Source: Candidatus Shapirobacteria bacterium
Lineage (GTDB): Bacteria > Patescibacteriota > Microgenomatia > UM-FILTER-40-11
Length of the DNA stretch: 64,000 nucleotides
Direction: 5' to 3'
Assembly (NCBI GenBank): GCA_020059745.1
Contig: JAGVBK010000003.1
Span: forward strand, 68,492-132,491
Position 1 is the first letter of the stretch. Every line of letters begins with the position of its first letter. The notes under the pieces were generated by a model, which saw only the letters and a program-made list of their open reading frames with translations, made no database searches and had not been told where the DNA came from. Of this stretch, positions 33,125 through 57,628 are shown in pieces. Position numbers and translations under genes: made by a program.

Positions 33125-34758
33125 TGATAAAAACAAAATCAGGAAAGATTATTCTTGTTTTGATATTTTTTTTAACTCTATTTTTAAGAACTTTCAAACT
33201 CAATGAGTTTCCGACTGGTCTTAATGCAGACGAGGCTGCTATTGGTTACAATGCCTACAGTTTAATTCAAACAGGCAAAGATGAGTTTGGCCATGCCTGG
33301 CCTGTTAATTTTCAGTCTTTTAATGACTTTAAGCCTGGTTTGTATTTTTATTTGGTTTTGCCGTTTGTAAAAGCTTTAGGACTTAATGAGTGGGCGGTTA
33401 GGCTTCCCTCAGCTTTGATGGGAACTTTAACAGTTGTTGTTTTGTATTTCTTGCTGAAAGAATTTTTTTCCAAAGAAGCAGCCTTGGTTTCAGCGCTGCT
33501 TTTATCTTTGAGCCCCTGGCATCTTCATTTTTCCCGGGGCGGTTGGGAAACAAACGCCGCTACTTTTTTCATTGTTTTGGGAATTTGGCTTTTTGTCAAA
33601 GCTTTTAAAAAGCCCGGTTTCTTTGTTCTTAGTGTTCTTTGTTTTGGACTTTCAATGCTTGCCTACCACAGTGCCAGAGTAGTGGCGCCGCTTTTGGGAT
33701 TGGGCCTGGTTTTTATGAATTTTTCCCAGGTTTTTGCAAAGAAAAACTTTAAATGGCTTTTGGCGAGTTTCTTTGTCGGCATTGTTTTTTTAATCCTTTT
33801 GGCCTCTTCTTTTCTAGGCGAAGCAGGAGCTTCGAGGTTTTCAGGAGTCGGCATTTTTGCCGACCAAGGGCCGCTCTGGCGGGTGAATGAGCTTAGAGGA
33901 CAGCACCCTGATCCTTTTTCCACTTTTTCAAAGTTAGCACACAACAAGTTTGTGGAATATTCTTTTCGCTTTGTTGACAATTGGCTGCGCCACTTTAGCG
34001 GTAATTTTCTATTTATTTCCGGTGACGAAATCCAAAGAAACAGAGTTCCGGAAATGGGCCAGTTTCTTTTAATTGAACTGCCGTTTTTAGTTTTTGGCTT
34101 TTACTTTTTATTAAGAAACAAACCAAAATTTTGGCTGTTTTTTCTTGGGTGGGTTGCCGTTGCTCCCATTGCTTCGGCTTTAACATTTCAGTCTCCCCAT
34201 GCCATAAGAGCCTTGAATATGGTAATACCATTGATTGTTTTAGCCGGGTACGGAATAACTCAATCATTTTTATGGTTGAAAAGTAAAACAAAACTGTATG
34301 GGGCATTAAGTATTATGTATTTGGTATTTTTTGTCTGGAATTTTAGTTTTTATTTACATCAGTACTATGTCCATTATCATAAAACCTATCCGGCAGCCTG
34401 GGAGGATGGCTTTAGAGAACTGGCTGGATATGTTTCTGGTAGAAAGGATGACTTTGAAAGAATTTATATCACCAACAAATATGACCAGCCTTATATTTTG
34501 ATGGCCTTTTATTTAAAATACCCGCCGGAAAAATTCCAAGAGCAAGCAGTGCTGACACCAAGGGACCAATTTGGCTTTTCTACCGTTGACCGCTTTGATA
34601 AGTTTTACTTTGGCCCAATCGATTATGAAAGCCTAAGCGGGCAAGAAAACATTATGATTATCGGTTCTTCCGGAGAGATACCCGATTCTGCTACAATAGC
34701 CAAGAGAATTTACTTTAGAGACGGAAAGACAGAGGCGTTTAGGATAGTTGAATATTGA
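33124..34758 (+). CDS. ArnT/PMT-family GT-C glycosyltransferase; array paralog 7.
   Basis: Contains NADEAAIGYNAYSLIQTGKDEFGHAWP, LGLNEWAVRLPSA and SPWHLHFSR. The C-terminal domain has WEDGFRE. Confidence 0.8.
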   Translation: MIKTKSGKIILVLIFFLTLFLRTFKLNEFPTGLNADEAAIGYNAYSLIQTGKDEFGHAWPVNFQSFNDFKPGLYFYLVLPFVKALGLNEWAVRLPSALMGTLTVVVLYFLLKEFFSKEAALVSALLLSLSPWHLHFSRGGWETNAATFFIVLGIWLFVKAFKKPGFFVLSVLCFGLSMLAYHSARVVAPLLGLGLVFMNFSQVFAKKNFKWLLASFFVGIVFLILLASSFLGEAGASRFSGVGIFADQGPLWRVNELRGQHPDPFSTFSKLAHNKFVEYSFRFVDNWLRHFSGNFLFISGDEIQRNRVPEMGQFLLIELPFLVFGFYFLLRNKPKFWLFFLGWVAVAPIASALTFQSPHAIRALNMVIPLIVLAGYGITQSFLWLKSKTKLYGALSIMYLVFFVWNFSFYLHQYYVHYHKTYPAAWEDGFRELAGYVSGRKDDFERIYITNKYDQPYILMAFYLKYPPEKFQEQAVLTPRDQFGFSTVDRFDKFYFGPIDYESLSGQENIMIIGSSGEIPDSATIAKRIYFRDGKTEAFRIVEY

Positions 34759-35190
34759 ACCATGAACAATGAATGCTGAACCATGAATATTGAAACATGA
34801 ACAAGATTTTGAATTTTTACGACCTAGATGCATGGAAAGAGGGACGCAAATTAGTATTAATGAATTATAAATTAACGGAAAATTTTCCAGAAAAAGAAAA
34901 ATTTTGTCTGGTTTCACAAATGAACAGAGTGGCAATTTCAATAACTTCTAATATTGCAGAGGGATTTACGAGAATGGGGGTTAAAGATAAAACTAATTTT
35001 TATTATATGGCGAAAGCTTCTTTAACTGAATTACAAAATCAGTTTATCTTGGCTAAGGAGTTATCTTATGTCACTCCGAATGAATTTAATGAAACATGGC
35101 TGCAGACAGTTATAGTTCACAAATTAATAACAGGGATAATCAAAGGTGTTAATAATTTACATGGTTCATAGTTCATGATTCATAATTCAA
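34748..35190. mobile_element. Putative small cassette: the IVS-protein gene bounded by inverted heptanucleotide repeat arrays.
   Basis: The left arm at 34748-34804 has 8 units of NTGAANN at exact 7-nt spacing, spanning the upstream stop and the IVS start. The right arm at 35158-35190 has 4-5 units of the reverse complement TTCANNN, spanning the IVS stop and the downstream start. Confidence 0.3.
34797..35171 (+). CDS. Four-helix-bundle protein of the 23S rRNA intervening-sequence (IVS) protein family.
   Basis: 124 aa, all helical. The hallmark SNIAEGF motif is present, in the typical KF.IA.GS..E-like context. It is flanked by inverted heptamer arrays. Confidence 0.7.
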   Translation: MNKILNFYDLDAWKEGRKLVLMNYKLTENFPEKEKFCLVSQMNRVAISITSNIAEGFTRMGVKDKTNFYYMAKASLTELQNQFILAKELSYVTPNEFNETWLQTVIVHKLITGIIKGVNNLHGS

Positions 35191-36008
35191 AGCCCGAGCT
35201 TTCTGTTGCCTTGGCTACCTATAATGAGGAGCGTATTTTGACAGAATGCCTCTCAAGCATTAAGTCTATAGCTGACGAAATTGTGGTTGTTGACGGTTCT
35301 TCTCAGGATAAAACAGTAGAAATTGCCCGGTCTTTTGGGGCGAAAGTAATAGTTGAAGACAATAAGCCTATTTTTCATATTAACAAACAAATTGCGATTG
35401 ACGAATGCCGCGGAGACTGGATTTTGCAGCTTGATGCTGATGAAATTGTTACTCCTGAACTGGCCAGAGAGATAGAAAAAATTGTTAAGGCTTCTGATAA
35501 TCGATCACTGATGGCCGATAACCAACCCGTTGCTTTTTACATTAAAAGAAAAAAAATGTTTTTGGGAAGATTTATAAAAAAGGGCGGCCAATATCCTGAT
35601 CCGGTGATCAGGCTTTTTAAAAAAGGAAAGGCTTTTTTGCCTTGTAAAAGCGTTCATGAGCAGATGCAGGTAAACGGAGAAACCGGTTGGCTTAAAGAGC
35701 CAATGCTTCATTTGCCAACGCCAAGCTTTAGTGTCTATATTACCAAAGATAACCGCTACTCAACTTTAACTGCAAACGAATTCTATGATAAAAATTTGGC
35801 ACTAAATGCTCAAAGCTTTTTGACTTATGTTTTTGTAAAACCTTTTTTAACTTTCTTTTCTCTTTTTATTAGGCACCGCGGCTTTGAGGATGGCTTTCCC
35901 GGTTTTGTTTTTGCGCTTTTTTCGGGTCTTCACTATGTTTCTGCTTATGTAAAGTATTGGGAAATGAAGAATACAAAAAATAAAGATATTGAAAAAGACT
36001 GGAAATGA
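35175..36008 (+). CDS. Family 2 glycosyltransferase.
   Basis: Contains LSVALATYNEERIL...VVVDGSSQDKT...DADE. It is paralogous to the 2601 and 7286 genes. Confidence 0.8.
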   Translation: MIHNSKPELSVALATYNEERILTECLSSIKSIADEIVVVDGSSQDKTVEIARSFGAKVIVEDNKPIFHINKQIAIDECRGDWILQLDADEIVTPELAREIEKIVKASDNRSLMADNQPVAFYIKRKKMFLGRFIKKGGQYPDPVIRLFKKGKAFLPCKSVHEQMQVNGETGWLKEPMLHLPTPSFSVYITKDNRYSTLTANEFYDKNLALNAQSFLTYVFVKPFLTFFSLFIRHRGFEDGFPGFVFALFSGLHYVSAYVKYWEMKNTKNKDIEKDWK

Positions 36009-37030
36009 TAAGAGTAGGAATTGACCTAACCCCCCTTAATAACCAAAGTAAATATCGGGGCATTGGAAAATATACCCAAAGGCTGATTGCTTCCCTAAGG
36101 AGTGTTAAGGATATTGAGCTTACTTCTTTACCGAACGAAGCCGACATTGTTCATTACCCCTTTTTTGATTTCTTTTTTTTAACACTTCCTTTTGTTAAGC
36201 CTAAAAAAACAGTAGTTACCATTCACGACTGCATTCCCCTTGCTTTTCCCGACCAATACCCGCCAGGAATTAAAGGCAGGGCAAAATTTCTTATTCAAAA
36301 ACAATCTTTAAAAGGAGTAGAGGCGGTTATAACTGATTCTGAAAGCTCAAAAAAAGACATTGTTAAATACCTTGACTACCCAGCTGAAAAAATTTGGGTT
36401 GTTTATCTTGCGGCTGATCCTTGTTTTGGAATAGTGGAAGACAAAAAAGAAAAAGACAAAATTAAAGAAAAATATATGCTTCCGGATAAATTTGTCTTAT
36501 ATGTGGGAGATGTTAACTACAATAAAAACTTAAGCAACCTGATAAAAGCCTACAGCCAGGTAAAAGATAAAGCTGATTTGGTGTTTGTCGGCAAATCTTT
36601 TGAAAATAAAACTTTAAAAGAGGTTAAGGAAATACTTTTTTTAATAAAAGAGCTTAATTTAGAAAAGAAAGTTCATTTTCCGGGGTATATTCCTGACTCT
36701 GATTTAAAAGTTGTTTATAATTTGGCTTCAGTGTATTGCCTTATTTCTTTATATGAAGGATTTGGCCTGGGAGTGCTTGAAGCCATGAGCTGCGGCTGTC
36801 CGGTTGTCGCTAGTAAGCTCTCCAGTCTTCCTGAAGCTGCGGGAGACGCTGCCTTGCTTGTTGACCCTTATTCCAAAGATGAGATAGGTAAAGCAATAGG
36901 AAAATTATTGGGCAGTAAAAAAGAAAGAGAAGAGTATGCTAAAAAAGGCGTAAAAAGAGCTGGTCTTTTTTCCTGGGAAAAAGTTGCCGAGGAAACAGCG
37001 GAGGTTTACAAAAAAGTAGTAAAAAAATGA
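36005..37030 (+). CDS. Family 4 glycosyltransferase with a GT-B fold.
   Basis: The C-terminal region reads FGLGVLEAMSCGCPVVASK. The start overlaps the upstream stop. Confidence 0.75.
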   Translation: MIRVGIDLTPLNNQSKYRGIGKYTQRLIASLRSVKDIELTSLPNEADIVHYPFFDFFFLTLPFVKPKKTVVTIHDCIPLAFPDQYPPGIKGRAKFLIQKQSLKGVEAVITDSESSKKDIVKYLDYPAEKIWVVYLAADPCFGIVEDKKEKDKIKEKYMLPDKFVLYVGDVNYNKNLSNLIKAYSQVKDKADLVFVGKSFENKTLKEVKEILFLIKELNLEKKVHFPGYIPDSDLKVVYNLASVYCLISLYEGFGLGVLEAMSCGCPVVASKLSSLPEAAGDAALLVDPYSKDEIGKAIGKLLGSKKEREEYAKKGVKRAGLFSWEKVAEETAEVYKKVVKK

Positions 37031-38172
37031 AGAAGTTTCTGAAAACTAACGGAGAGATATTAAAGTTTGTCTTAGTGGTTTTTTTAGTTTGGCAATGCGC
37101 TTTGGTCTCTTTGTCTTTTGTTGCCGACTGCCTGCCAAAAAGACATAATTTTCTCTATAATGACGGCCAAAGAAGGGTAAACCCAAGGTTTTTTTGGAAA
37201 ACTGCCAATTTTGACGGCATCCACTACCTTCACATTGCCAGAAATGGCTATGGAATGTATGAGCAGGCCTTTTTTCCTTTGTATCCAAACATTATAAAAA
37301 AGGCTGCTCCCCTTTTTGCCGGGAAAGATTTGGTTGCAAGTTTGGCTATCTCTAACCTTTCTTTTATTTTCTTTTTGTTTCTTTTTTACAAGCTTATAAG
37401 GCTCGATTTTAAGGATGATACTGCCCAAAAGGCAATTATCTTTCTTGTTCTTTTTCCTGCTTCTTTTTTCTTTGGCATGGTTTATACGGAAAGCTTTTTT
37501 TTGCTTTTGGCAATCGGGAGCTTTTATTCGGCCAGAAAAGGTAAGTGGCTGCTTGCGGGCCTGCTTGGGGCTTTGGCAGCCAATACAAGGCTTTTTGGCA
37601 TTTTCCTATTTCCGTCTCTTTTTTATGAATTTTTATATCAAAAAAGAGAAGAAAGGAAAAAACTTAGCTACCTGAATTTTCTGGCGATATCTTTAGTTCC
37701 CTTAGGGCTTTTGTCGTACATGAACTTTTTAAAACAAAAATATAATGATCCCTTAATGTTTTTTCACCTTCAACCTCATTTTGGGGCAGAAAGAAGCGGG
37801 GGAAAACTTATTCTTATTTACCAGGTTTTCTACCGTTATTTGAAAATGATTTTAACTACTTATTCTGACCCGCTTTACTTTGCCGTTTGGATAGAGCTTT
37901 TATCGGCGGTTGGTTTTCTGGCTTTGGGCTATTTTGCCTTTAAAAGAAAAATAAGAGCATCTTACCTTGTTTTTGCCTTGCTTGCTTATTTGGTGCCGAC
38001 CTTAACCGGCACTTTTTCCTCTTTACCCAGATATGCTCTAGTTCTGTTTCCCTGTTTTATTCTCTTAGGGACAATTAAAAATAAAATATTGGAAAGGTTT
38101 TTAATGGCAATTTTTGTTGTTTGTTTTATTATGGCATTACTCTTTTTCTACAGAGGTTACTGGGTAGCATAA
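37027..38172 (+). CDS. Polytopic membrane protein, GT-C-like (PIG-V/Gpi18- or DUF2029-like). Function unknown.
   Basis: 381 aa with about 9-10 TM helices and a conserved HYLHIARNGYGMYEQAFFPLYP loop. Confidence 0.4.
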   Translation: MKKFLKTNGEILKFVLVVFLVWQCALVSLSFVADCLPKRHNFLYNDGQRRVNPRFFWKTANFDGIHYLHIARNGYGMYEQAFFPLYPNIIKKAAPLFAGKDLVASLAISNLSFIFFLFLFYKLIRLDFKDDTAQKAIIFLVLFPASFFFGMVYTESFFLLLAIGSFYSARKGKWLLAGLLGALAANTRLFGIFLFPSLFYEFLYQKREERKKLSYLNFLAISLVPLGLLSYMNFLKQKYNDPLMFFHLQPHFGAERSGGKLILIYQVFYRYLKMILTTYSDPLYFAVWIELLSAVGFLALGYFAFKRKIRASYLVFALLAYLVPTLTGTFSSLPRYALVLFPCFILLGTIKNKILERFLMAIFVVCFIMALLFFYRGYWVA

Positions 38173-39441
38173 ATGAGAGCAAAACTTCACCGGCTTTTTT
38201 TAGACAACCTTCTTCTAAAGGGTAGTTTTGTGATTTTAATTGGTTCAACCCTGGCTAATTTTGGGGCTTATCTTTATCATCTTCTTATGGGCCGGTTACT
38301 TGGCCCTGTAGATTACAGCGTTCTTGAAAGCTTAATTTCTGTTCTCTACTATCTCGGCATTCCCATGACAGTTTTTGGGGTGGTAGTGGTAAAGTATATT
38401 TCCGGCGAAAAGGATTCTGAAAAGATTGCCAGGTTTTTTACTAAAATTTTAAACAAAGTAGCGTTGTGGGGGTTTTATGGCTTAATTATTTTTCTCTTAC
38501 TTTTTCCCCTTTTTAGAAATCTTTTAAAAATAGATTCTTTTTTGCTTTTTTTAGGTTTAGGAATTACTGCTTATTTGGGGGTGTTCAATAGTCTTTTTTC
38601 ATATTCTCTTCAGGGAGTGATGAAGTTTAAAGACTTAAGTATCTATAGCGTTTTTTCTTCTTGGCTTAAGCTCTTTTTTTCGTTAGTTTTCCTTTATTTT
38701 GGTTTTAAAGTTTATGGAGCTTTAATAGGTTTGCTCTTGTCTTCGTTTTTAGCATGTCTTTTTGGTTTAAATTTGGCAAAAAAATATATTAATCTTTTTA
38801 AGTCAAACAACATAAGCATTAAGGATTCTTTTGGTAATATTAGATCTTATTCTCTGGCTGTTTTTTTTACAAATTTTTCTCTTATTTCTCTTTTTACGGC
38901 TGATATTATTTTGGCTCGTTATTTTTTGCCTTCTGTTGAGGCTGGATACTATGCTTCGCTATCAATTTTAGGAAAAGTTATTTTTTACGCCTCTAGTCCT
39001 ATTGTTTCGGTGATGTTTCCTCTGGTCTCAAGTAAACATTCGGCCGGTGAAAACTACCAGAAATTATTTTGGATGAGCTTTTCTTTAATACTGCTTACGT
39101 CTTTAATTATTTCTATAATATATTTTTCTTTTCCTGAGCTTATGATTAACTTTCTTTTTGGCAAAGCTTATCTTGAGGGCGCTTCAAGCTTGGGACTTTT
39201 CGCAGTTTTTTTGACTCTCTACTCACTCTGTTCTCTTTTTCTTAACTTTTACCTCTCAATTTCCCGGACAAAAGCAATTTTTTTAGCAGGATTTTTTGCG
39301 GTTGTTCAGGTGATTTTAATTTTTTTCAACCACGGAAGCATTGGAGAAATTGTCAGGATAAATATTTTCACTCTTTCTTTATTACTGCTTGGACTTTTGC
39401 TTTTTTATATTAAAAGCTTTAAATTTAAACAATGCAGTTAA
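38173..39441 (+). CDS. Wzx-like oligosaccharide flippase of the MOP superfamily.
   Basis: 422 aa with about 12 TM helices. The N-terminus (LKGSFVILIGSTLANFGAYLYHLLMGRLLGP.DYS) is typical of polysaccharide biosynthesis / Wzx proteins. Confidence 0.7.
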   Translation: MRAKLHRLFLDNLLLKGSFVILIGSTLANFGAYLYHLLMGRLLGPVDYSVLESLISVLYYLGIPMTVFGVVVVKYISGEKDSEKIARFFTKILNKVALWGFYGLIIFLLLFPLFRNLLKIDSFLLFLGLGITAYLGVFNSLFSYSLQGVMKFKDLSIYSVFSSWLKLFFSLVFLYFGFKVYGALIGLLLSSFLACLFGLNLAKKYINLFKSNNISIKDSFGNIRSYSLAVFFTNFSLISLFTADIILARYFLPSVEAGYYASLSILGKVIFYASSPIVSVMFPLVSSKHSAGENYQKLFWMSFSLILLTSLIISIIYFSFPELMINFLFGKAYLEGASSLGLFAVFLTLYSLCSLFLNFYLSISRTKAIFLAGFFAVVQVILIFFNHGSIGEIVRINIFTLSLLLLGLLLFYIKSFKFKQCS

Positions 39442-40223
39442 ATCTTCTCTCGGTCATTGTTCCTGCTTACAAACAGGAAAAAACTATAATTAAAGACCTT
39501 AAAAACATAGAGTCGGTATTAACTCAGCTCAACTGTGATTATGAGATTATTTGCGTGGCTGACGGCAAGATAGATAAAACCTTTGAAAAAGCAAAAAAGA
39601 TTGCTTCTCAAAAAATTAAGGTTGTCGGTTACAGGGAAAATCGCGGTAAGGGCTATGCGGTAAGATATGGCATGGCCAGAGCCAAAGGCGAGGTGGTGGC
39701 CTTTATTGACGCCGGCATGGACATAAACCCAAGGGGGTTGCCGATGCTTTTGGAGCATATGAAGTGGTATGATTCGGATGTTATTGTCGGCTCAATCAGA
39801 CATTCGGCCTCAAAAGTTATAGGCTATCCCCTTAAAAGAAGAATTTTTAGTGTCGGTTACCACTTTTTAACCAGGTTTCTTTTTGGTTTAAGAATAACTG
39901 ACAGCCAAAGAGGGATAAAGATATTTAAAAGAGAGGTTCTTGAAAAGGTATTGCCTAGAATGATAGTTAAAAAATTCTCCTTTGATATTGAAATGTTAGC
40001 CGTGGCTTATCATCTTGGCTTTAAAAAAATTCATGACGGTCCGGTGGAAATGGATGCAAGAAAGTTTAAGTATTCAAGCATAAGATATACAACAGTAAGC
40101 TCGATGTTTATTGATACTCTTGCCATTTTTTATCGATTACATCTTTTAAGATACTATTCCAGTAAAAATAAAAGAAAGTGGGTGTATGACCCTGACTTGG
40201 ACATGAATATAAATATAGGATGA
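39432..40223 (+). CDS. Family 2 glycosyltransferase, polyprenyl-phosphate glucosyl/mannosyl-transferase-like (DPM1/ALG5-like).
   Basis: The N-terminus reads LSVIVPAYKQEKTI. A DxD-like region reads FIDAGMD. The overall length and spacing fit the GtrB/DPM1 group. Confidence 0.65.
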   Translation: MQLNLLSVIVPAYKQEKTIIKDLKNIESVLTQLNCDYEIICVADGKIDKTFEKAKKIASQKIKVVGYRENRGKGYAVRYGMARAKGEVVAFIDAGMDINPRGLPMLLEHMKWYDSDVIVGSIRHSASKVIGYPLKRRIFSVGYHFLTRFLFGLRITDSQRGIKIFKREVLEKVLPRMIVKKFSFDIEMLAVAYHLGFKKIHDGPVEMDARKFKYSSIRYTTVSSMFIDTLAIFYRLHLLRYYSSKNKRKWVYDPDLDMNINIG

Positions 40224-41248
40224 AAAAGCCAAAAGCCTCTGTTATCATTCCCGTTAGAACCATTACCCCTTATGTTAGAGAGACCGTTGATCATCTTTTA
40301 AGACAGACAGAAAAAAACTTTGAAATTATTGTTGTTACGGACAAAAAAGAGGAACTAAAAGGGGTAATGGTAATTGCCAGCGGCCAGCCGACACCTTCTT
40401 TTAAAAGAAATCTAGGAGCAAAGAAGGCAAAAGGAGAAATTCTTGCTTTTTTAGATGATGATTCTTACCCCTGCAAAGATTGGCTGAAAAACGCTCTTAG
40501 AATTTTTAATGATCGCTCACTGAGCGATCACCGGCCACTGACGGCTGTCTGCGGACCCACCTTAACCCCTCCTCATGATAATATTTTTCAGAAAGCTTCA
40601 GGTTGTGTTTGGTCTTCTTTTTTAGGCAGCGGAGGAGCAGGGGTTTACCGAAACAGGGTTAAAGAAAGGCGGGAAGTTGACGATTTTCCTTCAGTTAACC
40701 TTTTAGTCAAGAAAAAAGATTTTGAAAAAGTATCTGGTTTTGACATTAACCATTGGCCGGGAGAGGATACTAAGCTTTGCCTAGACTTAACTTCTTTAGG
40801 GAAAAAAATTATTTATGACCCTGGGGTTTTAGTTTATCACCACCGCCGAGCAGTTATTGTTCCCCATTTAAAGCAAATAAGCCGGTATGCTTTAAGAAGA
40901 GGACATTTTGCCAAAATTTTTCCCAAGACTTCCTTAAGGATCGGATATTTACTGCCTTCTTTTTTGGCTTATGGCCTTTTGTTTGGCTTGGGTGCTATTT
41001 TACTTTTTCCTTTTTTAGCTTTTTTTTATCTTTCCTTTCTTGCAATTTATTTTATCGCACTTTTCCTTACCGGCCTTGAGGTGCAGATTAGGGAAAAGGA
41101 TTTAAGAATAACTATTTTGACCATAATTTCAATTTTTTTGACCCATTTAGTTTATGGTTTTCTTTTTCCAATCGGATTTTTGCAAAAGGAACTTAAAACA
41201 GTGGCGCATCAAGTTGACGAAAAAAGAAAAGTTTATATAGGTGGTTAG
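40220..41248 (+). CDS. Family 2 glycosyltransferase with C-terminal TM helices.
   Basis: Contains ASVIIPVRTITPYV...IIVVTD...FLDDDS (DxD) and 3-4 C-terminal TM helices. Its stop overlaps the stop of the convergent minus-strand gene. Confidence 0.7.
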   Translation: MKKPKASVIIPVRTITPYVRETVDHLLRQTEKNFEIIVVTDKKEELKGVMVIASGQPTPSFKRNLGAKKAKGEILAFLDDDSYPCKDWLKNALRIFNDRSLSDHRPLTAVCGPTLTPPHDNIFQKASGCVWSSFLGSGGAGVYRNRVKERREVDDFPSVNLLVKKKDFEKVSGFDINHWPGEDTKLCLDLTSLGKKIIYDPGVLVYHHRRAVIVPHLKQISRYALRRGHFAKIFPKTSLRIGYLLPSFLAYGLLFGLGAILLFPFLAFFYLSFLAIYFIALFLTGLEVQIREKDLRITILTIISIFLTHLVYGFLFPIGFLQKELKTVAHQVDEKRKVYIGG

Positions 41249-43104
41249 TTTTGGGAAGAGATTTTGTTTAAAACTTCATTAATCCTCTGGTTTTCAGGGT
41301 CCATGCTTTTTGCCTTAAGAAGCGCCTCTTTTGCCTCGGAAGTTTTGCCCATGTTAAGGAAAACAATTCCCTTGGCAAAATAAAGGCCCGGGTTTTCCGG
41401 ACTTATAGAAAGGGCTTTGTCGAGAAAGGAAATAGCAGAATCAAAGTCTTTGTTTTCTGCATAAATGACAGCTAAGTTTTGATATGACTGCCAGAGGTTG
41501 GGATTTGCCTTTATCGCCTGTTCGTAATTTTGCCTTGCCAGGTCAAGTTTGCCCATTTGCAAATAGGTGTTGGCCAAGTTATGGTAGGCGTCGCCATAAT
41601 TGGGAAGAAGCTTTATGGCAGCTTGAAACTCTTCAACAGCTTTTTCAAATTCCCCTCTTCTTGCATAGAGGTCTCCAAGATTATTGTGGTTTTGTGGGCT
41701 TGAAGGCGAAGTTTTTCCGGCGGCGATCCAAAGAGTATCCTGATTTTTCCAATCCATATTTCTGTAAACAGTTCTTATGGAAAGAGCAGTTATTAGCAAA
41801 GAAAAAATTAGCCAAGAATAGAATTTATCTTTAAGTAACTCTCCAAGTTTAACGATTAAAACCGAAACAATGACAAAAATGCCAAGCGTACCAAAATAGG
41901 CGTATCTTTCGGCAATAATCCAGGAGATTTTTATTGGCGTAAGCATGGGCATGAGGCCGATAAAAAAGAAGGCAAGCCAAAAGGAGTAAGTTCTGAGCTT
42001 TTTGTTAAAGTAAGTGTAAGCAATGGCACCAAAATAAGCCAAAGTAGTAATTAGCATCATAATATAGCTTGACACAGAAAAAGCCAGCTCAGAGTGGTAG
42101 AGGGTAAGTTTTTGCGGCCAGAAAATAAGATAAAAATAATTGGCCATGGCGGTAGGAATCTGGGTTAGAGGATTGTATCGCCCTCCGTCCTGATAGTGAA
42201 CCGTTTTATGGATATGTTGAATGTTTTTCAAAGTTCCGCCGAAAACAATAAGTGAAATACAGATAAGGCTGATTAGGAAAAACGGAATCAGGATTTTCCA
42301 GTTTTTACGCAAATTCCCTTGCGTCAGTTCATAAAAAAACAAAATTCCCGGAAAAGAAACCGCTTTCTCTTCAGTAAAAAGGGCCAAAAGGAAAAAAACG
42401 ATGGAGAATAAATAATATTTAACCGGTTTTTTTTCTTTTTTGGAAAGCAAATAAGAGAGAAAAGAAAAAAGCAGGAAAAAAGTGTATTGCGAGTGGATGG
42501 CTCCCGATATCCAGGTTACCGCTTCACTTAAAAGCGGATGAACAGCAAAAAGCCCGGCAGACATAAAAGCTAAAGGAAAGGAGGAAAAAAGCAAAGAAAT
42601 GATTGTAAAAATCAAAAGAACCGAGCCTAGGTGAGTAATAATTCCAATCATTCTGAATACAGCCGGATTAAGGCCGCCGATTTTATAAGCTAGCGTTAAA
42701 GTAAGAGGTCTTAGAAAAGTAAAAACATTACGGTTGCCTACGAAAGCTTTGGAGAAACTCGATATTCTCTTGCTCTCTTTGATGGTGGCAATATCGTCGG
42801 ATAAAAACTCGTTATTTAGGGAATTAAAATAAACTCCGATAACCAGGAGCGAAAGAGCCAGCAAAGCCCACCAGTTTTTTTTAAAGAATTGTTTAAAGCA
42901 AAAAGCATTTTTTTCTTTTGTCTCGTCTTCCTTTTTTCTATGATTTTCACTTAGATATTTGCTAACCTTTTCTTCAGACCAGACTTCACTAAGATGATTA
43001 ATTATTTCGTTTTCATCAACTTTAAGTTTACCGGCAAGTTCGGAAAGCGAAAATTTTCTTAAATTCTTTTTTACAAATTTTTTTTGTGATTTGCTTAACG
43101 GCAT
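41245..43104 (-). CDS. TMTC-like protein: a GT-C-type TM domain followed by C-terminal TPR repeats.
   Basis: 619 aa. It has a cytoplasmic N-terminus, about 10 TM helices, then 5 or more canonical TPR units (NLGDLYARRGEFEKAVEEFQAAIKLLPNYGDAYHNLANTYLQMGKLD...). The architecture resembles the TMTC O-mannosyltransferase family with its PMT_2/DUF1736-like core. It is the only minus-strand gene in the window. Confidence 0.6.
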   Translation of the reverse strand: MPLSKSQKKFVKKNLRKFSLSELAGKLKVDENEIINHLSEVWSEEKVSKYLSENHRKKEDETKEKNAFCFKQFFKKNWWALLALSLLVIGVYFNSLNNEFLSDDIATIKESKRISSFSKAFVGNRNVFTFLRPLTLTLAYKIGGLNPAVFRMIGIITHLGSVLLIFTIISLLFSSFPLAFMSAGLFAVHPLLSEAVTWISGAIHSQYTFFLLFSFLSYLLSKKEKKPVKYYLFSIVFFLLALFTEEKAVSFPGILFFYELTQGNLRKNWKILIPFFLISLICISLIVFGGTLKNIQHIHKTVHYQDGGRYNPLTQIPTAMANYFYLIFWPQKLTLYHSELAFSVSSYIMMLITTLAYFGAIAYTYFNKKLRTYSFWLAFFFIGLMPMLTPIKISWIIAERYAYFGTLGIFVIVSVLIVKLGELLKDKFYSWLIFSLLITALSIRTVYRNMDWKNQDTLWIAAGKTSPSSPQNHNNLGDLYARRGEFEKAVEEFQAAIKLLPNYGDAYHNLANTYLQMGKLDLARQNYEQAIKANPNLWQSYQNLAVIYAENKDFDSAISFLDKALSISPENPGLYFAKGIVFLNMGKTSEAKEALLKAKSMDPENQRINEVLNKISSQN

Positions 43105-43157
43105 AGCTATTTTTTTAGTTTAGCAAAAGGGCAGAGGTCTGACAATAAAGAAAAAAT

Positions 43158-43200
43158 TTGAGGCAAACTTATGCTACAATTATGCTACTCAAACTATATA
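43158..43200 (+). promoter_or_regulatory. Putative sigma70-like promoter for the epimerase gene, in the divergent intergenic region.
   Basis: TTGAGG at 43158-43163, a 17-nt spacer, then TATGCT at 43181-43186. Alternative -10-like hexamers lie nearby. This is the only intergenic gap over 100 nt between divergent genes. Confidence 0.3.
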
Positions 43201-43208
43201 GAAAAAAG

Positions 43209-44237
43209 ATGAAAGTTTTAGTAACAGGAGGCGCAGGTTTTATCGGCTCACATGTGGTTGACATGCTTGTTAATAAAGGCCACGAGGTATTTAGTATTGA
43301 TGATATGTCAGGTGGGTTTTGGAGGAATATTAATCCTTCGTGCAAATTTGAAAAGATTAACTTAGTTGACAAAGAAAAAACTTCCGAATTTGTAAAAAAA
43401 ATACAGCCGGAAATAATTTTCCATTTGGCAGCCGACGCAACCGAGGGAAGAAGCCAATTTACTCCTATAAACTGCACGGAAAGAAACTATAACGCTTTTT
43501 TACACACTCTTGTCCCCGCTATAAAAACAAAGCGGCTTAAAAGATTTGTTGCTATCTCTTCTATGAGTATTTACGGTGCCCAAAAGCCTCCTTTTTCGGA
43601 AGAAATGAGACCCTGCCCTGAAGACATATACGGGGTTTCAAAAACAGCGATGGAAGAAACATTAAAAATTCTTGCCGATGTTTATGGCTTTGAATATTGC
43701 ATTATGAGGCCTCACAATGTTTACGGAATAAGGCAAAATATTGCCGATCCATATAGGAATGTGATCGGAATATTTATAAACCAACTTCTTGGCGGCAGAA
43801 AGTATTATATTTATGGTGACGGCAAGCAAAAAAGGGCTTTCAGCCACATAAATGATGTTGCTCCTTACATTGTCATGGCTGGTTTTTCAAAAAACTGCAA
43901 AAACGAGGTGTTTAATGTCGGCCCGAGTGAGGAATATTCGATAAACCATGTTTCTGGGCTTATTCTTAAAAGCTTTTTTGGAAGTTTAGATAAGGTCCCG
44001 GAGAACCAAAAGCCGGAACACATACCCGACAGACCGAAAGAAGTAAAAAACGCTTACTGCACTAATAGCAAAATAGTAAAAATAATGGGCTATAAAACAA
44101 GCATCGGCCTCGAGGACGGAATTGGAGAAATGATTGATTGGGCAAAAAATCTTGGTTATCAGAAGCCTCGTTATCTCCACGAGCTTGAGATTGAAAATCA
44201 GCTGACCCCTAAAACCTGGAAAGAAAAATTACTTTAA
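43209..44237 (+). CDS. NAD-dependent sugar epimerase/dehydratase of the extended SDR family.
   Basis: The Rossmann motif MKVLVTGGAGFIGSH is present, followed by a YxxxK catalytic region. I prefer the ATG at 43209 over the TTG-initiated ORF-track start at 43158. Confidence 0.8.
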   Translation: MKVLVTGGAGFIGSHVVDMLVNKGHEVFSIDDMSGGFWRNINPSCKFEKINLVDKEKTSEFVKKIQPEIIFHLAADATEGRSQFTPINCTERNYNAFLHTLVPAIKTKRLKRFVAISSMSIYGAQKPPFSEEMRPCPEDIYGVSKTAMEETLKILADVYGFEYCIMRPHNVYGIRQNIADPYRNVIGIFINQLLGGRKYYIYGDGKQKRAFSHINDVAPYIVMAGFSKNCKNEVFNVGPSEEYSINHVSGLILKSFFGSLDKVPENQKPEHIPDRPKEVKNAYCTNSKIVKIMGYKTSIGLEDGIGEMIDWAKNLGYQKPRYLHELEIENQLTPKTWKEKLL

Positions 44238-44238
44238 C

Positions 44239-45237
44239 ATGAACTTTGTTGAGTATTACAAAGCAGCAAGAAAAGCAACGGCCAAGTTTATCTTTTGGGA
44301 ACTTTATTGGACGGTTAGATTTCTTTCTTTAAAAAAATTTTTAAATTTAATCTTAATTTTTTATCAGGATCATTTAAGACGGTCTTTTGAAGTAAGGGGA
44401 TTTCCGGTTAAATTGACTATTGATCCTACGGCTAACTGTAATCTTCACTGTCCGCTTTGTCCTACCGGCCAGGGCAATAAAGGGAGGAAAAAGGGGCTGA
44501 TGAAATTAACCGACTTTAAAAAAATTATTGACGAAACAGGGGATTTTCTTTTAGAAGTGGATCTTTTTAACTGGGGAGAGCCGCTTTTAAATAAAGAAGT
44601 GTTTAAAATGATAAGCTACACGCACAAAAAGAAAATAAAAGCCAGAATAAGTTCGAACTTAAACTTTTTTCCTTCTGGTTTTGAGAAAGAACTGGTTAAA
44701 AGCAAGCTTCATCATTTGGTAGTTTCACTTGACGGAATTTCCCAAGAAACATATTCTCAATACCGAGTAGGCGGATCATTGCCTAAAGTTTTAGATTCAG
44801 TTAAAAAAATTGCTCTTGAAAAAAAACGGCAAAGCTCCCCCTTTCCTTTCATAACCTGGCAGTTTATTGTCATGAAACATAACGAGCATGAAGTAAAGGA
44901 AGCTAAGAAATTGGTAAAGGAGTGGGGTTTTGACAGAATAGTTTTTCAGAGAAACCGGGGAGATATGGGTAAAGAGCTTTTTAAAAAGGCAAAAAAGCAG
45001 TTAAAAACCTGCCATTTTCTCTGGAATCAGTCTGTTATTAACTGGAACGGTTCTGTTTCTCCATGCTGTCTTTACTATGATGAGAAATATGATTTTGGCA
45101 ATGCTTTTAATGATGGTTTTGCCGAAGTTTGGAATAACCAAAGATACAAAGAAGCAAGAAGGCTAGTAACTGAAAAGAAATGCAATGATAAAAACTTGAT
45201 TTGTTGGAACTGTATTAAAAATGGTTTTCCTGATTGA
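44239..45237 (+). CDS. Radical SAM protein with a SPASM/twitch C-terminal domain.
   Basis: A CNLHCPLCP motif (CxxxCxxC) follows DPTANCN. The C-terminus has a cysteine cluster, PCCLYYDE...CWNC. Confidence 0.75.
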   Translation: MNFVEYYKAARKATAKFIFWELYWTVRFLSLKKFLNLILIFYQDHLRRSFEVRGFPVKLTIDPTANCNLHCPLCPTGQGNKGRKKGLMKLTDFKKIIDETGDFLLEVDLFNWGEPLLNKEVFKMISYTHKKKIKARISSNLNFFPSGFEKELVKSKLHHLVVSLDGISQETYSQYRVGGSLPKVLDSVKKIALEKKRQSSPFPFITWQFIVMKHNEHEVKEAKKLVKEWGFDRIVFQRNRGDMGKELFKKAKKQLKTCHFLWNQSVINWNGSVSPCCLYYDEKYDFGNAFNDGFAEVWNNQRYKEARRLVTEKKCNDKNLICWNCIKNGFPD

Positions 45238-45266
45238 TTAATGTTTATTAACAATGAATAAATAAT

Positions 45267-46298
45267 ATGAACAAAAAAAATCCGTTGGTTAGCGTACTCA
45301 TTGTTAATTACAATGGCGGAGCGGTTCTTGATTCCTGTCTTGCTTCACTTAAAAAGACCGATTATCCGAATTTTGAGACCATTGTTGTTGACAATGGTTC
45401 GACAGATGAAAGCATTAAAATGATAAAAAAGAAATACAAATGGGTTATTCTTTCGGAAGCAAAGAAAAATCTCGGTTTTGCTGCAGGTAATAATTTTGCT
45501 TATAAATCTTCCGGCGGTGAATATATAGCTTTGCTTAATGGGGATACTGAAGTTGAACCCGGCTGGTTAAGAAAGTTAGTTGAATTCGCCCAAAAACATA
45601 AGGACGGGGCAGCTTTTGCCGCTAAAGTGCTTTTTTTCGATGATAAAAAAACGCTCAATTCGGCTGGCGGGCTTTGTGATTGGTATGGTTTTTCTCCACT
45701 AAGAGGAACTTTTGAAAAAGACGAAGGCCAATATGACAGTCCTGACATGGTTTTTTATGCCCATGGAGCCGCAATGATGATTCGCCGTGAGACAATAGAA
45801 AAGATTGGTTTTTTTGATGAAGACTATTTTATTTACCATGAAGAGCTGGATTTTTGCTGGCGAGCATGGATTTTCGGTTACAAGGTTTATTATGTTCCCG
45901 GATCTGTTGTCTATCACAAGTTAAAGCAAAGAAATTTTTATGCCCCGGAAAAAAGAGCGCAAAGGCAGTTCTTGGTGAAAAAAAACAGGATTAGCACTCT
46001 TATTAAAAACCATAAAAGCCTTTCTCTTCTTACAGCCTCCCTTTTAGTAAATTTTATTGTTTCTCTTGGTGAAACCGTTTTTTATTTATCTAAAGGTGAC
46101 CTGCAAACAATTAAAGGTACTTTTATGGCATACTTTTGGAATGTTAAGCATTTTAGAAAAGACTGGAAAAAAAGAAAGAGAGTACAGAAACTGTATATGG
46201 CAGATGAGGTCTACATCTTGAAGAGAATGAAAAGATTTCCGGTGGCAATTGACATTTTTAAAGGTATAATTTCTGGGAAACTATCTCTCCCTTTATAA
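45267..46298 (+). CDS. Family 2 glycosyltransferase of the rhamnosyltransferase-like subgroup.
   Basis: Contains VSVLIVNYNGGAVL...VVDNGSTDES...NLGFAAGNN...LLNGDT. Confidence 0.8.
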   Translation: MNKKNPLVSVLIVNYNGGAVLDSCLASLKKTDYPNFETIVVDNGSTDESIKMIKKKYKWVILSEAKKNLGFAAGNNFAYKSSGGEYIALLNGDTEVEPGWLRKLVEFAQKHKDGAAFAAKVLFFDDKKTLNSAGGLCDWYGFSPLRGTFEKDEGQYDSPDMVFYAHGAAMMIRRETIEKIGFFDEDYFIYHEELDFCWRAWIFGYKVYYVPGSVVYHKLKQRNFYAPEKRAQRQFLVKKNRISTLIKNHKSLSLLTASLLVNFIVSLGETVFYLSKGDLQTIKGTFMAYFWNVKHFRKDWKKRKRVQKLYMADEVYILKRMKRFPVAIDIFKGIISGKLSLPL

Positions 46299-55364: not shown

Positions 55365-55664
55365 ATGTCATTTTTTATAGCTTTAATTTCACTTATTCTG
55401 GTTAACATTTTTTTACTAAAAATAGAAAGCGAATTAATTTATGTTTTTATACCAGTAATTGTGATTTTTACAGAAAAGCACTTTAAAGTCGATGCAAAAA
55501 TAACTATAGTTTCGGGACTCTTTTTTTTATCTTTATGTGCGGTTTTCATGCTTATAAATGAAACCGTGGCATCTAAGCTCGCTGTCTGGGCGTTTTTGCT
55601 TTTGCTTTCCGGAACATTTAAAATGATATTTCAGCAAGAAGAAACTAAAAAATTAAAAAAATGA
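55365..55664 (+). CDS. Small membrane protein with 3 TM helices.
   Basis: 99-aa ORF packed between overlapping neighbours. It is hydrophobic with a lysine-rich tail. Confidence 0.45.
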   Translation: MSFFIALISLILVNIFLLKIESELIYVFIPVIVIFTEKHFKVDAKITIVSGLFFLSLCAVFMLINETVASKLAVWAFLLLLSGTFKMIFQQEETKKLKK

Positions 55665-57145
55665 AGATAGTTATTGGTTATCCGCCGCTTAAGTCAGAGA
55701 AAGGTATTCCTCAGATTTCTCAAAATCGCCAATTCCAATGGACAGCAGGCGGTCCGCTTTCTTATTTTATTTACCCGGTTATCCCCGCTTATGCAGCCAG
55801 TTTATTAAAAGAAAGAGGTTATGAAGTTTACTGGCTTGATGGTTTGGCCGAGAAAATGACTTACGAGCAGTGGGAAAAGAAACTGCTGGAAATTAAACCT
55901 GATATTTTAGCCATTGAAACAAAAACTCCGGTTATCAAATACCACTGGCAAATCATTAAACAACTTAAAAAACTGGTCACTGATCACTGGTCACTGGTTA
56001 CTGTCTTGATGGGCGATCATGTTACTGCCTTGCCAGAAGAATCATTTTCAAAATGTCCTGTCGACTATATTTTAACCGGCGGTGATTATGATTTTGGCCT
56101 TCTTTCCATTGCTAATCATTTAAGCAAAGGCGAGAAGTTAGATTCTGGCATATATTACCGCACCAAAAACGATGATTCGAAGTTCATGGTTCATGGTTCA
56201 AAGTTCAAGTTAAATCATAGTCTTGACGAGTTGCCCCTAATTGATCGGGATTTAACAAAGTGGCACCTCTATGCTTACAGAAATTCGAATTTTTACCGCG
56301 CTCCCGGAGCCTACACAATGTTTGGTCGGGATTGCTGGTGGGGAAAATGTTCATTTTGTTCCTGGACAACTCTTTTTCCCGGAGAAAAATTCAGAGTAAT
56401 GAGCGTTAAACAGGCGATTGCTGAAGTGAAGAATTTGGTTGAAAACTATCATGTTAAGGAAATAATGGACGATTCGGGCACTTTTCCGACCGGCGATTGG
56501 TTAAGGGAATTTTGTGAAGAAATTATTAAAAGAGGATACCAGAAAAAAATTAATATTAACTGCAATATGCGGTTTAACTGCGGGCTTTCACAAAAAGATT
56601 ATAACTTGATGGGGAAAGCGGGTTTCAGGTTTATTCTTTATGGTCTTGAATCGGCGAACCAGGAAACACTTGACAAGCTTAATAAAAATCTCAAGGTTGA
56701 GCAAATAGAGCCGGCCCTTAGCGCGGCAAAAAAGGCTGGGCTCAAGCCCCATGTAACCGTAATGGTCGGCTACCCGTGGGAAGGAGAAAAAGAAATTCAA
56801 AAAACAGTCTCTTTTGTCAAAAATCTTTTTGAAAAAGAGTTGGTTGATACAATGCAGGCCACAGTAGTAATTCCTTACCCCGGAACTCCTCTTTTTGAGG
56901 AATGTAAAAAGAAAAAACTTCTTAAAACTTTGGACTGGAATAGGTATGACATGAGAGAGCCCATTATGAAGGCTGGGGTTTCCGATGAAAAGCTAATGTG
57001 TGCCGTCAGGGAGCTATATAGCAGTTCCGTTTGGAATAAGACCTTTGTATTTAATACACTTAAGAAATTAGGAAACTATGATGGTTTTAAGTATGTTTCT
57101 TTTCAGGGATTTAAGTATTTAGGAAAACTTTTAGAATTCAAGTGA
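55661..57145 (+). CDS. Cobalamin-binding (class B) radical SAM enzyme.
   Basis: It has an N-terminal B12-binding-like domain, then FGRDCWWGKCSFC (CxxxCxxC). It carries two heptamer-repeat patches, at 55974-56001 and 56183-56210, inside the CDS. Confidence 0.75.
   Translation: MKIVIGYPPLKSEKGIPQISQNRQFQWTAGGPLSYFIYPVIPAYAASLLKERGYEVYWLDGLAEKMTYEQWEKKLLEIKPDILAIETKTPVIKYHWQIIKQLKKLVTDHWSLVTVLMGDHVTALPEESFSKCPVDYILTGGDYDFGLLSIANHLSKGEKLDSGIYYRTKNDDSKFMVHGSKFKLNHSLDELPLIDRDLTKWHLYAYRNSNFYRAPGAYTMFGRDCWWGKCSFCSWTTLFPGEKFRVMSVKQAIAEVKNLVENYHVKEIMDDSGTFPTGDWLREFCEEIIKRGYQKKININCNMRFNCGLSQKDYNLMGKAGFRFILYGLESANQETLDKLNKNLKVEQIEPALSAAKKAGLKPHVTVMVGYPWEGEKEIQKTVSFVKNLFEKELVDTMQATVVIPYPGTPLFEECKKKKLLKTLDWNRYDMREPIMKAGVSDEKLMCAVRELYSSSVWNKTFVFNTLKKLGNYDGFKYVSFQGFKYLGKLLEFK
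55974..56001. repeat. Heptamer tandem repeat TG(G/A)T(C/T)AC with 4 units, inside a cobalamin radical-SAM CDS.
   Basis: TGGTCAC TGATCAC TGGTCAC TGGTTAC. It encodes VTDHWSLVT, which is absent from the paralog at 46303. Confidence 0.6.
56183..56210. repeat. Heptamer tandem repeat GTTCA(T/A)(G/A) with 4 units, inside a cobalamin radical-SAM CDS.
   Basis: GTTCATG GTTCATG GTTCAAA GTTCAAG. It belongs to the same family as the arrays flanking the IVS gene. Confidence 0.6.
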
Positions 57146-57154
57146 TCTCATTTT

Positions 57155-57628
57155 ATGAAATTTTTAAATTTAATCAATAAAAACTTGTTTTTCCATGAGC
57201 TTACCCATTTCATCTTGAGTTTGTTGTCTGGATTATTTGTATGGCTAATATTCAGAGACTGGAGACTTTTGCCAGTTGCCATTTTATTTGGATTTTTTAT
57301 TGATGTGGATCACCTATTTGATTATTTGAATTGGTCAAGGGGAAGTCTTAAACTCTCCGAGTTTTTTACCCCCCGGCTTTATGTCAGGGGATCAAAAAAG
57401 GTTTTCGTTCCCCTTCATGGTTGGGAATTTTTACCGTTTGTCTGGATTTTTGGGAGAATAATTGGTTTAAAAATCGGAATTTCCGGATTTCAATGGGCTG
57501 CTTCTTTGGCCTATTTTACCCACATGTCTTGGGATCAAATTACAGTCAACCCCAACACACTTGGATATTTCTTTATCTATCGCTTGATAAATAATTTTAA
57601 AATGAAAAGCTTTAATGGAAAAAAATAG
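57155..57628 (+). CDS. Small integral membrane protein, possibly a YdjM/DUF457-like membrane-bound metal-dependent hydrolase.
   Basis: 157 aa with 3-4 TM helices. There are conserved His/Asp positions (HELTHF...DVDHLFD). Confidence 0.35.
   Translation: MKFLNLINKNLFFHELTHFILSLLSGLFVWLIFRDWRLLPVAILFGFFIDVDHLFDYLNWSRGSLKLSEFFTPRLYVRGSKKVFVPLHGWEFLPFVWIFGRIIGLKIGISGFQWAASLAYFTHMSWDQITVNPNTLGYFFIYRLINNFKMKSFNGKK

Follow-up and report, generated by a model that had tools for sequence, protein, structure and literature searches.

In-frame heptanucleotide arrays in the loops of a predicted cobalamin-dependent radical-SAM enzyme: position and period are kept while the unit turns over

Two in-frame heptamer arrays in a radical-SAM gene

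Two tandem arrays of a seven-nucleotide unit lie inside one protein-coding gene of a Candidatus Shapirobacteria bacterium (Microgenomates, Patescibacteria), an ultrasmall and uncultured organism, which raises the question of how repeats of this kind came to occupy an enzyme gene and what they do there. The window analysed here is the whole 64,000-nt (64-kb) stretch of contig JAGVBK010000003.1 (assembly GCA_020059745.1); coordinates without a prefix refer to it. The gene, which together with its protein we call Q, is the plus-strand open reading frame (ORF) 55661–57145, a coding sequence (CDS) of 494 codons for a radical-SAM (rSAM) protein with a B12-binding domain; orthologous loci retrieved as DNA are denoted by L and a number. 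We consider it probable that both arrays, A and B, are old in-frame heptanucleotide microsatellites occupying two of only three loops that tolerate insertions and deletions (indels) in this enzyme of a surface-glycan cluster.

Array A occupies 55972–56006 on the plus strand and reads ACTGGTC, ACTGATC, ACTGGTC, ACTGGTT, ACTGTC, with AAAAA before it and TTG after it. It holds 4.6–5 units of the form ACTGGTC/ACTGATC (family 1) and encodes LVTDHWSLVTV at residues 104–115. Array B occupies 56176–56212 on the same strand and, following a GA, reads TTCGAAG, TTCATGG, TTCATGG, TTCAAAG, TTCAAGT, TA. Its 4.7–5 units of the form TTCAnnn (family 2), with a core of 2.7 copies of GTTCATG, encode SKFMVHGSKFK at residues 172–184. 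Tandem Repeats Finder assigned period 7 to both, with 4.6 copies and 88% matches for array A (55972–56003) and 4.7 copies at 80% for array B (56176–56208, perfect core 56182–56200). Uninterrupted repetition extends at most over 15 nt (2.1 units) in array A and over 19 nt (2.7 units) in array B. The initial annotation of this DNA had placed two arrays at 55974–56001 and 56183–56210, which are arrays A and B in another register, and had described them as remaining in frame. Direct reading agrees: both peptides are read in the ORF, within the first 37% of the CDS.

The periodicity of the window exceeds that of shuffled sequence, against which it had been proposed to be judged. Where at least 18 of 21 self-matches were demanded, there were four period-7 arrays in the window and none in 20 first-order Markov shuffles; where at least 16 of 21 were demanded, there were nine against a mean of 0.6. 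A scan of lags 3–14 gave enrichment only at period 7 and its double, 14. Arrays A and B are thus confirmed as heptanucleotide simple sequence repeats (SSRs), that is, head-to-tail copies of a short unit beyond chance expectation.

The product of Q is a predicted cobalamin-dependent rSAM enzyme, with an rSAM core, a three-cysteine motif and an N-terminal Rossmann-like B12 domain. The Pfam Radical_SAM model scored 64 bits and the B12-binding model 23.6 bits, the latter under its cut-off of 32.1, and no NCBIfam equivalog reached its cut-off with Q (the best, HpnJ, at 148 against 578 bits). The cluster motif is CX4CX2C (C225, C230 and C233 in CWWGKCSFC, encoded at 56333–56359) and is invariant in 34 orthologs. 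The AlphaFold (AF2) model has a confidence score (pLDDT) of 80.8, and a Foldseek search with it matched AprD4, MgmA, OxsB and TsrM at TM scores of 0.58–0.69; a sequence search of solved structures returned weak matches to the rSAM core, and the fold search told more. Three B12/rSAM paralogs, 23–28% identical to one another, lie in the window, and the other two both have the canonical CX3CX2C, unlike the CX4CX2C of the ortholog family of Q. The window itself is a single long plus-strand glycosylation cluster with GT2, GT4, PMT_2/STT3-like and GT-C (AftD-like) genes and a polysaccharide flippase. From this setting, the enzyme is predicted to modify the surface glycan, or ‘sugar coat’.

In the AF2 model, site A runs from the end of helix 92–105 through loop 106–112 to the start of strand 113–118. 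In Rossmann-like domains generally, a connection that leads from helix to strand is on the side turned from the cofactor. Site B is a β-hairpin (strands 165–167 and 175–177; pLDDT ∼63). The inter-domain linker in which array B had been placed is right as to position, between the B12 domain and the rSAM core, and is corrected in detail to this hairpin; both sites are loop or hairpin, which answers in the affirmative the question whether a structure prediction puts them in surface loops. The array A stretch had also been described as absent from the paralog at 46303. This is not so for the whole stretch: three residues are missing at A (KKLLPD---TVV) and about three at B. Relative to the ancestral loop lengths, Q has a net gain of ∼3 residues at site A and ∼4 residues at site B.

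Heptamer hot spots across the ortholog family

Homologs of Q number more than 6000, and the best orthologs come from metagenome-assembled genomes (MAGs) of Microgenomates/Shapirobacteria. Q was aligned with its 120 best homologs and the DNA of 160 orthologous loci was fetched, from which 154 full-length genes, 139 of them non-redundant, were aligned. In the 120 homologs, sites A and B are hypervariable for indels in an otherwise very conserved protein, and peptides with a period of seven residues are common there (SPVTSHQSPITV, KFQISNFKFQIV, KLAVGNWQLAVV and EIRNTKYEIRNTGKF); one homolog has an expanded periodic peptide (SPATSHQPPITSHQPPATNHQSPITV). Among the 154 aligned genes, self-similarity at lag 7 is confined to Q residues 100–114 (site A), 155 (a third site, C) and 170–179 (site B), with lags 4–12 otherwise near zero along the whole gene.

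Arrays were present at site A in 31 of the 139 non-redundant orthologs (at least 16 unit clusters), at site C in six (at least six clusters) and at site B in 21 (at least 13 clusters). The total of ortholog arrays was 69, compared with 0.2 expected from codon shuffles, and lags of 5, 6, 8 and 9 at the three sites gave between zero and three arrays. In a search of 80 genome loci (1.2 Mb), we found 53 period-7 arrays against 13 or fewer for any other period. The ortholog gene makes up 10% of this DNA and holds 23 of the 53, a roughly 7-fold enrichment over its flanks.

Between orthologs, the peptides at these sites can be wholly different while the 7-nt period stays. The loops are therefore long-lived heptamer hot spots across the ortholog family, where position and period are conserved and the unit differs by lineage. 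The periodicity is missing from the same loops of distant orthologs (55% identity or less, high-GC genomes included) and of the paralogs (e.g. LKEELPETKIVLMGD and GIWYRENGEIKNTGKF). Because the length of an array often equals that of the ancestral loop, the arrays appear to overwrite loops rather than simply to insert into them. The initial annotation had spoken of lineage-specific insertions, which the comparison does not support: the loops pre-exist in paralogs and distant orthologs, many orthologs carry arrays, and five-unit counterparts occur at 71–74% nucleotide identity. It had also considered that orthologs might encode the same peptides without periodicity. In close orthologs, similar peptides come with the 7-nt period; in distant ones, the loop is there and the period is not.

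Comparison of relatives shows how the tracts change. Among relatives at 85–92% amino acid identity, every internal indel falls at Q residues 104–109, 155 or 167–174. L033 has five perfect AAATTCA units, a net gain of 21 nt, where L034 has unique sequence; a TCAAGCG array in L105, also a net gain of 21 nt, is not found in L104; and L084 has ∼10 near-perfect CACCAGY units. Several indels between close relatives are exactly 21 nt, equal to three units or seven residues, and in intact genes only net multiples of three units were seen. Tracts thus arise, become homogeneous and change in size within short times.

The tracts of Q itself have changed little in number. Its closest relatives with DNA are L161, at 81% nucleotide identity, and L162, L163 and L164, at 71–74%. 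Array B is orthologous in Q and the latter three, each with five TTCAnnn units, whose TTCA core persists and whose three final bases have diverged. Q and L162 also share an orthologous array A, of five units in each, which reads ACTGGTC in Q and ACTAATC/ACCAATC in L162. At site A, L163 has 4.7 perfect copies of AAATTTC in a tract as long as that of Q, and L161 and L164 have an ATTAAAA form that is 9 nt shorter. L169, the only other assembly of this organism to reach the gene, is identical over 56024–57474, which takes in array B, also of five units, and starts 18 nt past array A. Unit number is thus five wherever these arrays are shared, with 21-nt steps in other relatives and a count of 10 in L084. 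The Q tracts are old, imperfect and stable in this genome.

Almost all full-length orthologs (152 of the 154) are in frame. The two exceptions break exactly at the sites, neither of them by 7 nt. In L148 (L148:4505–4510), flanks that are 100% identical to L088/L001 surround a deletion of 17 nt, which lies at site B between GGGAA microhomologies and shifts the frame; this is either a null allele that exists in nature or an artefact of assembly. L154 has lost 1 nt from an A-run at the edge of site A. Slippage was considered for this frameshift and set aside in favour of a probable assembly error, since a single base of a homopolymer is missing and the contig is 1.5 kb long.

The same loops (near Q residues 104 and 170) take up GC-rich, hairpin-like inserts of 27–130 nt in several AT-rich genomes (L034, L097, L116, L118, L085, L086 and L056). 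These encode peptides such as TPRRTSLRGRQ, SCLAGRQA, PARHASPAGQG... and TSEVCRRRNTTSEV. They are reminiscent of repetitive extragenic palindromic (REP) or Rickettsia palindromic elements (RPEs) and would form a second class of in-frame repetitive insert.

Unit families and the four-helix-bundle cassette

Both units recur elsewhere in the window. The family 1 pattern ACYGRTC (ACYGRTCACYGRTC, up to two mismatches) gave 18 matches against 0.74 expected, and the family 2 pattern GTTCATG (GTTCATGGTTCATG, up to three mismatches) gave 17 against 3.6. Family 1 is found at five loci: site A, three patches of a GT2 gene at 20344–20539 (on both strands) and 6527–6548. Family 2 is found at three: site B and, in inverted orientation, both flanks of a gene for an IVS protein. 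These counts uphold the grouping first proposed, of array A with the GT2 patches and of array B with the IVS flanks. Every strong array of the window lies within a coding sequence or where two genes meet. Recurrence of one unit at several unlinked loci of a genome is the mark of a genome-wide heptamer family, and both families show it. Taking all loci together, 5.9% of array pairs from the same genome had identical units, compared with 1.0% of pairs from different genomes. Local slippage alone is therefore insufficient, because units are shared within a genome above the between-genome rate, and the suggestion of a non-local seeding process or shared mechanism is plausible.

Patch 1 of the GT2 gene (20344–20392, minus strand) is family 1 reversed, as its GATCAGT is the reverse complement of ACTGATC; TCAGTTA occurs within it, and its peptide is RDQLSGISYQGS. 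Patch 2 (20403–20437, AACCGGT/AACCGAT) and patch 3 (20505–20539, CACCGAC/CACCGAT, encoding SPTTDHRSPITL) are on the plus strand. All three lie in the first third of the gene (20234–21181), and patch 1 is 14-nt periodic and encodes LSGISYQ. A further family 1 array, ACCGGTA ACCGGTC ACCGATC, lies at 6522–6551 on the plus strand inside ORF 6348–7289.

The gene between the two family 2 flanks (34797–35171, plus strand) encodes a four-helix-bundle, Avd-like protein of the ‘23S rRNA IVS protein’ type (Pfam PF05635 at 105 bits; TIGR02436), 100% identical to P0121 of a MAG named ‘Candidatus Microgenomates bacterium’ at NCBI. The left terminal array (34749–34804, minus strand) consists of seven TGAAnnn units, the reverse complement of family 2, and holds the PMT_2 gene's stop codon and the IVS gene's start codon. 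The right terminal array (35157–35190, plus strand) reads CATGG TTCATAG TTCATGA TTCATAA TTCAAAG, is oriented as array B and holds the IVS stop codon as well as the next GT2 gene's start codon. Together they form an inverted repeat (34755–34791 and 35154–35190) that matches at 76% over 37 nt or at 85% over 26 nt. In L164, the PMT_2–GT2 junction (L164:1880–1925) is empty, having neither the IVS gene nor the arrays. The gene and its arrays are therefore an insertion or deletion unit, and the segment 34749–35190 has the look of a small cassette that is mobile or open to processing by RNase III.

Counting the window and the orthologous loci, seven of eight IVS-like genes have short tandem arrays beside at least one end. 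Those near the rSAM ortholog are at L081:8358–8850, L039:2100–2600, L011:11440–11920, L044:6720–7170, L017:294–335 and L137:7523–7705. Inverted arrays stand on either side of the gene in the window, L081, L039, L011, L044 and possibly L066; L017, whose left end is lost at the contig edge, and L137 have an array at the right end only. The unit repeats every 7 nt in the window, L081, L017, L137 and L066; in L039, L011 and L044, the period is 8 nt or irregular. Units at these genes include GATATTA/AATATCN, the 8-nt ACAGCTGG, GGGTTTAG, TAAAGTT and ACTTTAT, and there is also an 18-unit GAATAAT array.

Comparison of the rSAM gene with an IVS cassette of the same genome showed a common array unit in three cases: site B of the window, sites A and B of L081 (oppositely oriented) and site C of L017 (with one or two mismatches). 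In L137, the rSAM unit differs from that of its own cassette. The match in three genomes is a lead rather than a demonstration. Within L081, the arrays at A (3710–3748, AATATCC) and B (3909–3941, AGATATT) are mutually reverse complementary. A GT2 gene in L084 (L084:6289–6608) has the same two units as inverted arrays, 250 nt apart and both in frame; such pairs may form RNA stems or invertible segments.

Arrays A and B have no mutual complementarity in the window that would make an RNA stem or an invertible segment. Neither site A nor site B is accompanied by an inverted partner, a target-site duplication or a cassette remnant. In-frame insertion of a mobile element (of the miniature inverted-repeat transposable element (MITE) or RPE type) was considered for the two arrays and rejected, given that there are no inverted ends or duplication and that orthologs have arrays in the same loops.

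Origin of the arrays and comparison with known systems

On the reading that we prefer, of old microsatellites in indel-tolerant loops, slippage or misalignment in a 7-nt register would create, homogenise, expand and contract the tracts. Purifying selection on the conserved enzyme would then let through only net changes that keep the frame (3n), and only in the three permissive loops, so that a tract would come to be read in all three frames as a peptide with a period of seven residues. A tract would take the place of the ancestral loop and leave the net length nearly unchanged. The Q tracts would now be mainly ordinary loop-coding sequence, which modestly raises the risk of indels and is not an efficient ON/OFF switch. 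Behind the sharing of units, that of the IVS terminal arrays included, there may be a further non-local process, whether ectopic conversion or common seeding. Heptameric SSRs are over-represented in many bacteria, and an explanation in terms of polymerase slippage, centred on the polymerase active site, has been proposed (Mrazek 2007, cited through PMC4679880 and PMC4692102).

Several points weigh against this reading. Simple local slippage leaves unexplained the sharing of a unit by unrelated loci of one genome, seen for two families in the window, and likewise the replacement of a loop by a perfect array without net change in length (L163, L137 and L113). Since a step of +7 shifts the frame, a gain of 21 nt de novo needs either three events by way of non-functional intermediates or one multi-unit event, and neither route was directly seen among the compared loci. 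The 7-fold enrichment of arrays over the flanks may reflect selection for mutability and not mere tolerance. Finally, the strain comparison consists of one assembly (L169) and covers array B only.

Selection for mutability would be expected of a contingency locus, in which slippage by one unit either way switches the glycan-modifying enzyme OFF or ON, as in NeuO, and gives the epibiont a variable surface chemistry. The unit is not divisible by three and lies at codons 104–115 and 172–184 of 494, so that gain or loss of one unit truncates the protein. The gene sits in a glycosylation cluster (GT2, PMT_2/STT3-like, GT-C) whose GT2 genes carry heptamer arrays too. Many orthologs have four to five perfect units, and one has 10 near-perfect ones (L029, L045, L137 and L163; L084). 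The enrichment in the ortholog gene and the L148 deletion, which falls exactly at site B, point the same way. There is also a precedent in the capsule O-acetyltransferase gene neuO of Escherichia coli K1, carried by phage CUS-3. Its AAGACTC tract, of 3–53 perfect N-terminal units, encodes the three-frame seven-residue repeat RLKTQDS; the gene is demonstrably phase-variable, is ON only where the repeat number is divisible by three, and is OFF in about two thirds (66%) of genomes (PMC13001214). Against this stands the state of the tracts in Q, whose 2.1 and 2.7 perfect units fall short of the cut-off of at least five that PhasomeIt applies to long repeat units in surveys of phase variation (PMC6321876). 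Unit number is constant across relatives at 71–74% nucleotide identity, array B is identical in L169, and the frame is lost in only two of the 154 full-length orthologs, by 1 and 17 nt, compared with the 66% of genomes in which neuO is OFF. Therefore, with degenerate tracts that have kept five units over such distances, an efficient frameshift switch is not supported here; the initial annotation's view of this gene as frameshift-prone does not hold for this genome, and we regard a contingency locus as quite unlikely. Sharing of units bears on a different possibility, namely that the loop arrays are solo copies or conversion products of the terminal arrays of IVS cassettes, spread by a sequence-specific activity linked to the element. 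In its favour are the inverted family 2 arrays that bracket the IVS gene, the empty site in L164, the arrays at one end or more of seven of eight IVS-like genes, the match between rSAM and cassette units in the window, L081 and L017, and the more frequent sharing of units within genomes than between them. Sites A and B nevertheless show none of the inverted partners, target-site duplications or cassette remnants that were looked for, the same loops carry arrays of many units in dozens of lineages, and the Q arrays were inherited from an ancestor shared with L162–L164. Some cassette flanks have a period of 8 nt or another length, and the sample is small: three matching genomes, with L137 mismatched and a genome-wide control lacking. 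We think such seeding unlikely as the source of the loop arrays.

A further reading is a genome-specific ‘heptamer array system’ of Patescibacteria, in which small Avd-like cassettes bounded by inverted arrays would propagate their unit, through an element-linked activity or ectopic conversion, into permissive loops of surface-glycan enzymes and so produce hypermutable tracts at conserved positions, by which these epibionts would diversify or switch their cell surface. We hold this to be quite unlikely. If true, it would mean a new way for repeats to spread, and no contingency-locus system would have been described in this radiation before it. It might also be supposed that the periodicity arises at the level of the protein, by heptad-like selection, or as a compositional accident of A/T-rich loop codons. 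The loops are rich in lysine, asparagine and isoleucine, the genome has a GC content of 37%, and some conserved motifs do fit two heptamers (e.g. EIRNT as GAAATAC GAAATAC). However, the peptides differ wholly between orthologs while the period is kept, neighbouring lags are empty, and shuffles yield close to no arrays where 69 were observed. Selection on a peptide cannot yield the arrays, because the 7-nt periodicity is the same DNA read in three frames. Protein-level selection and compositional chance are ruled out by the lag and shuffle controls, and we give them hardly any weight.

Among described systems, neuO is the closest functional analogue, in that both are heptanucleotide tracts in the 5′ part of the CDS of an enzyme that modifies a surface polysaccharide. 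The likeness extends to the unit, with AAGACTC in neuO and AAACTCA (KLKTQNS) in some orthologs here. At site A of L006, L112, L113 and L045, 4.7 perfect copies of AAACTCA encode this peptide, which is nearly the RLKTQDS of neuO; the resemblance is probably convergence on stop-free hydrophilic heptamers. Unlike neuO, the arrays of Q have about five imperfect units in loops of folded domains; no variant that differs by 7 nt was observed, and the reading frame is intact in nearly all orthologs.

The dominance of period 7, the genome-specific unit families at many loci and the typical four to five units are all shared with the long heptameric SSRs (Mrazek 2007). Those SSRs are mostly intergenic and under-represented in coding sequence, whereas here the arrays are in frame in enzyme loops, at hot spots conserved across a family. 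For the GGGAATC repeats of Xanthomonas and Nostoc, most Xanthomonas repeats lie between the same genes in two compared species while length and sequence vary extensively (PMC4692102), which resembles the conserved positions and variable units seen here. The short tandemly repeated repetitive (STRR) sequences of Calothrix and the TAACTGA repeats of Beggiatoaceae and cyanobacteria form short direct arrays at many loci, and in reversed orientation in ORFs these give LSVISYQ-type peptides (PMC4679880). The TCAGTTA of GT2 patch 1 (LSGISYQ) is the reverse complement of TAACTGA, and the array A units TCACTGA and TTACTGT are one or two mismatches from it. Unlike the TAACTGA and STRR repeats, which lie mainly between genes or just ahead of start codons, the arrays here are mostly coding, occur in another phylum and show no tie to translation start sites. 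Identity with the TAACTGA/STRR units was considered and rejected, as the units differ by one or two bases and the arrays are coding or at gene junctions.

Rickettsia palindromic elements are in-frame, selfish, palindromic inserts of ∼100–150 bp that are copied as units. Like them, the arrays are in-frame repetitive DNA tolerated in surface loops, and the same loops take GC-rich hairpin-like inserts. Unlike them, the arrays are tandem 7-mers of ∼35 nt without terminal repeats.

To our knowledge, heptameric repeats have been recognised since 2007 as the commonest long microsatellites of bacteria, and are almost unstudied and thought to be mainly intergenic. In the literature that we searched, no paper tied Patescibacteria to simple sequence repeats, heptamers or phase variation. 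The present case is different: in a single ortholog family, in-frame arrays in three loops of an enzyme retain their position and their 7-nt period while the unit turns over. The family is thus a natural system in which to measure the birth, homogenisation and filtering of non-triplet microsatellites in genes. It raises the questions of whether ultrasmall episymbionts vary their glycan coat through such tracts, and whether unit families spread between loci along with four-helix-bundle cassettes. For annotation, loop peptides with a seven-residue period should be read as repeat-encoded and not as functional motifs.

A scan of the whole window with Rfam found no RNA family. Exact-protein look-ups returned nothing for Q or for five other window proteins encoded downstream of 45 kb; proteins encoded upstream of this point are on record. 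The JGI contig Ga0104761_1000133 is 100% identical over 30639–45171, a span that stays 10 kb short of the Q gene, and L167 is 99.6% identical to 41464–45729. The identity of L169 to the window, which begins at 56024, gives way to dense mismatches past ∼57990, and the alignment stops at 58075. On these alignments, the glycan cluster may be mosaic among strains of this organism.

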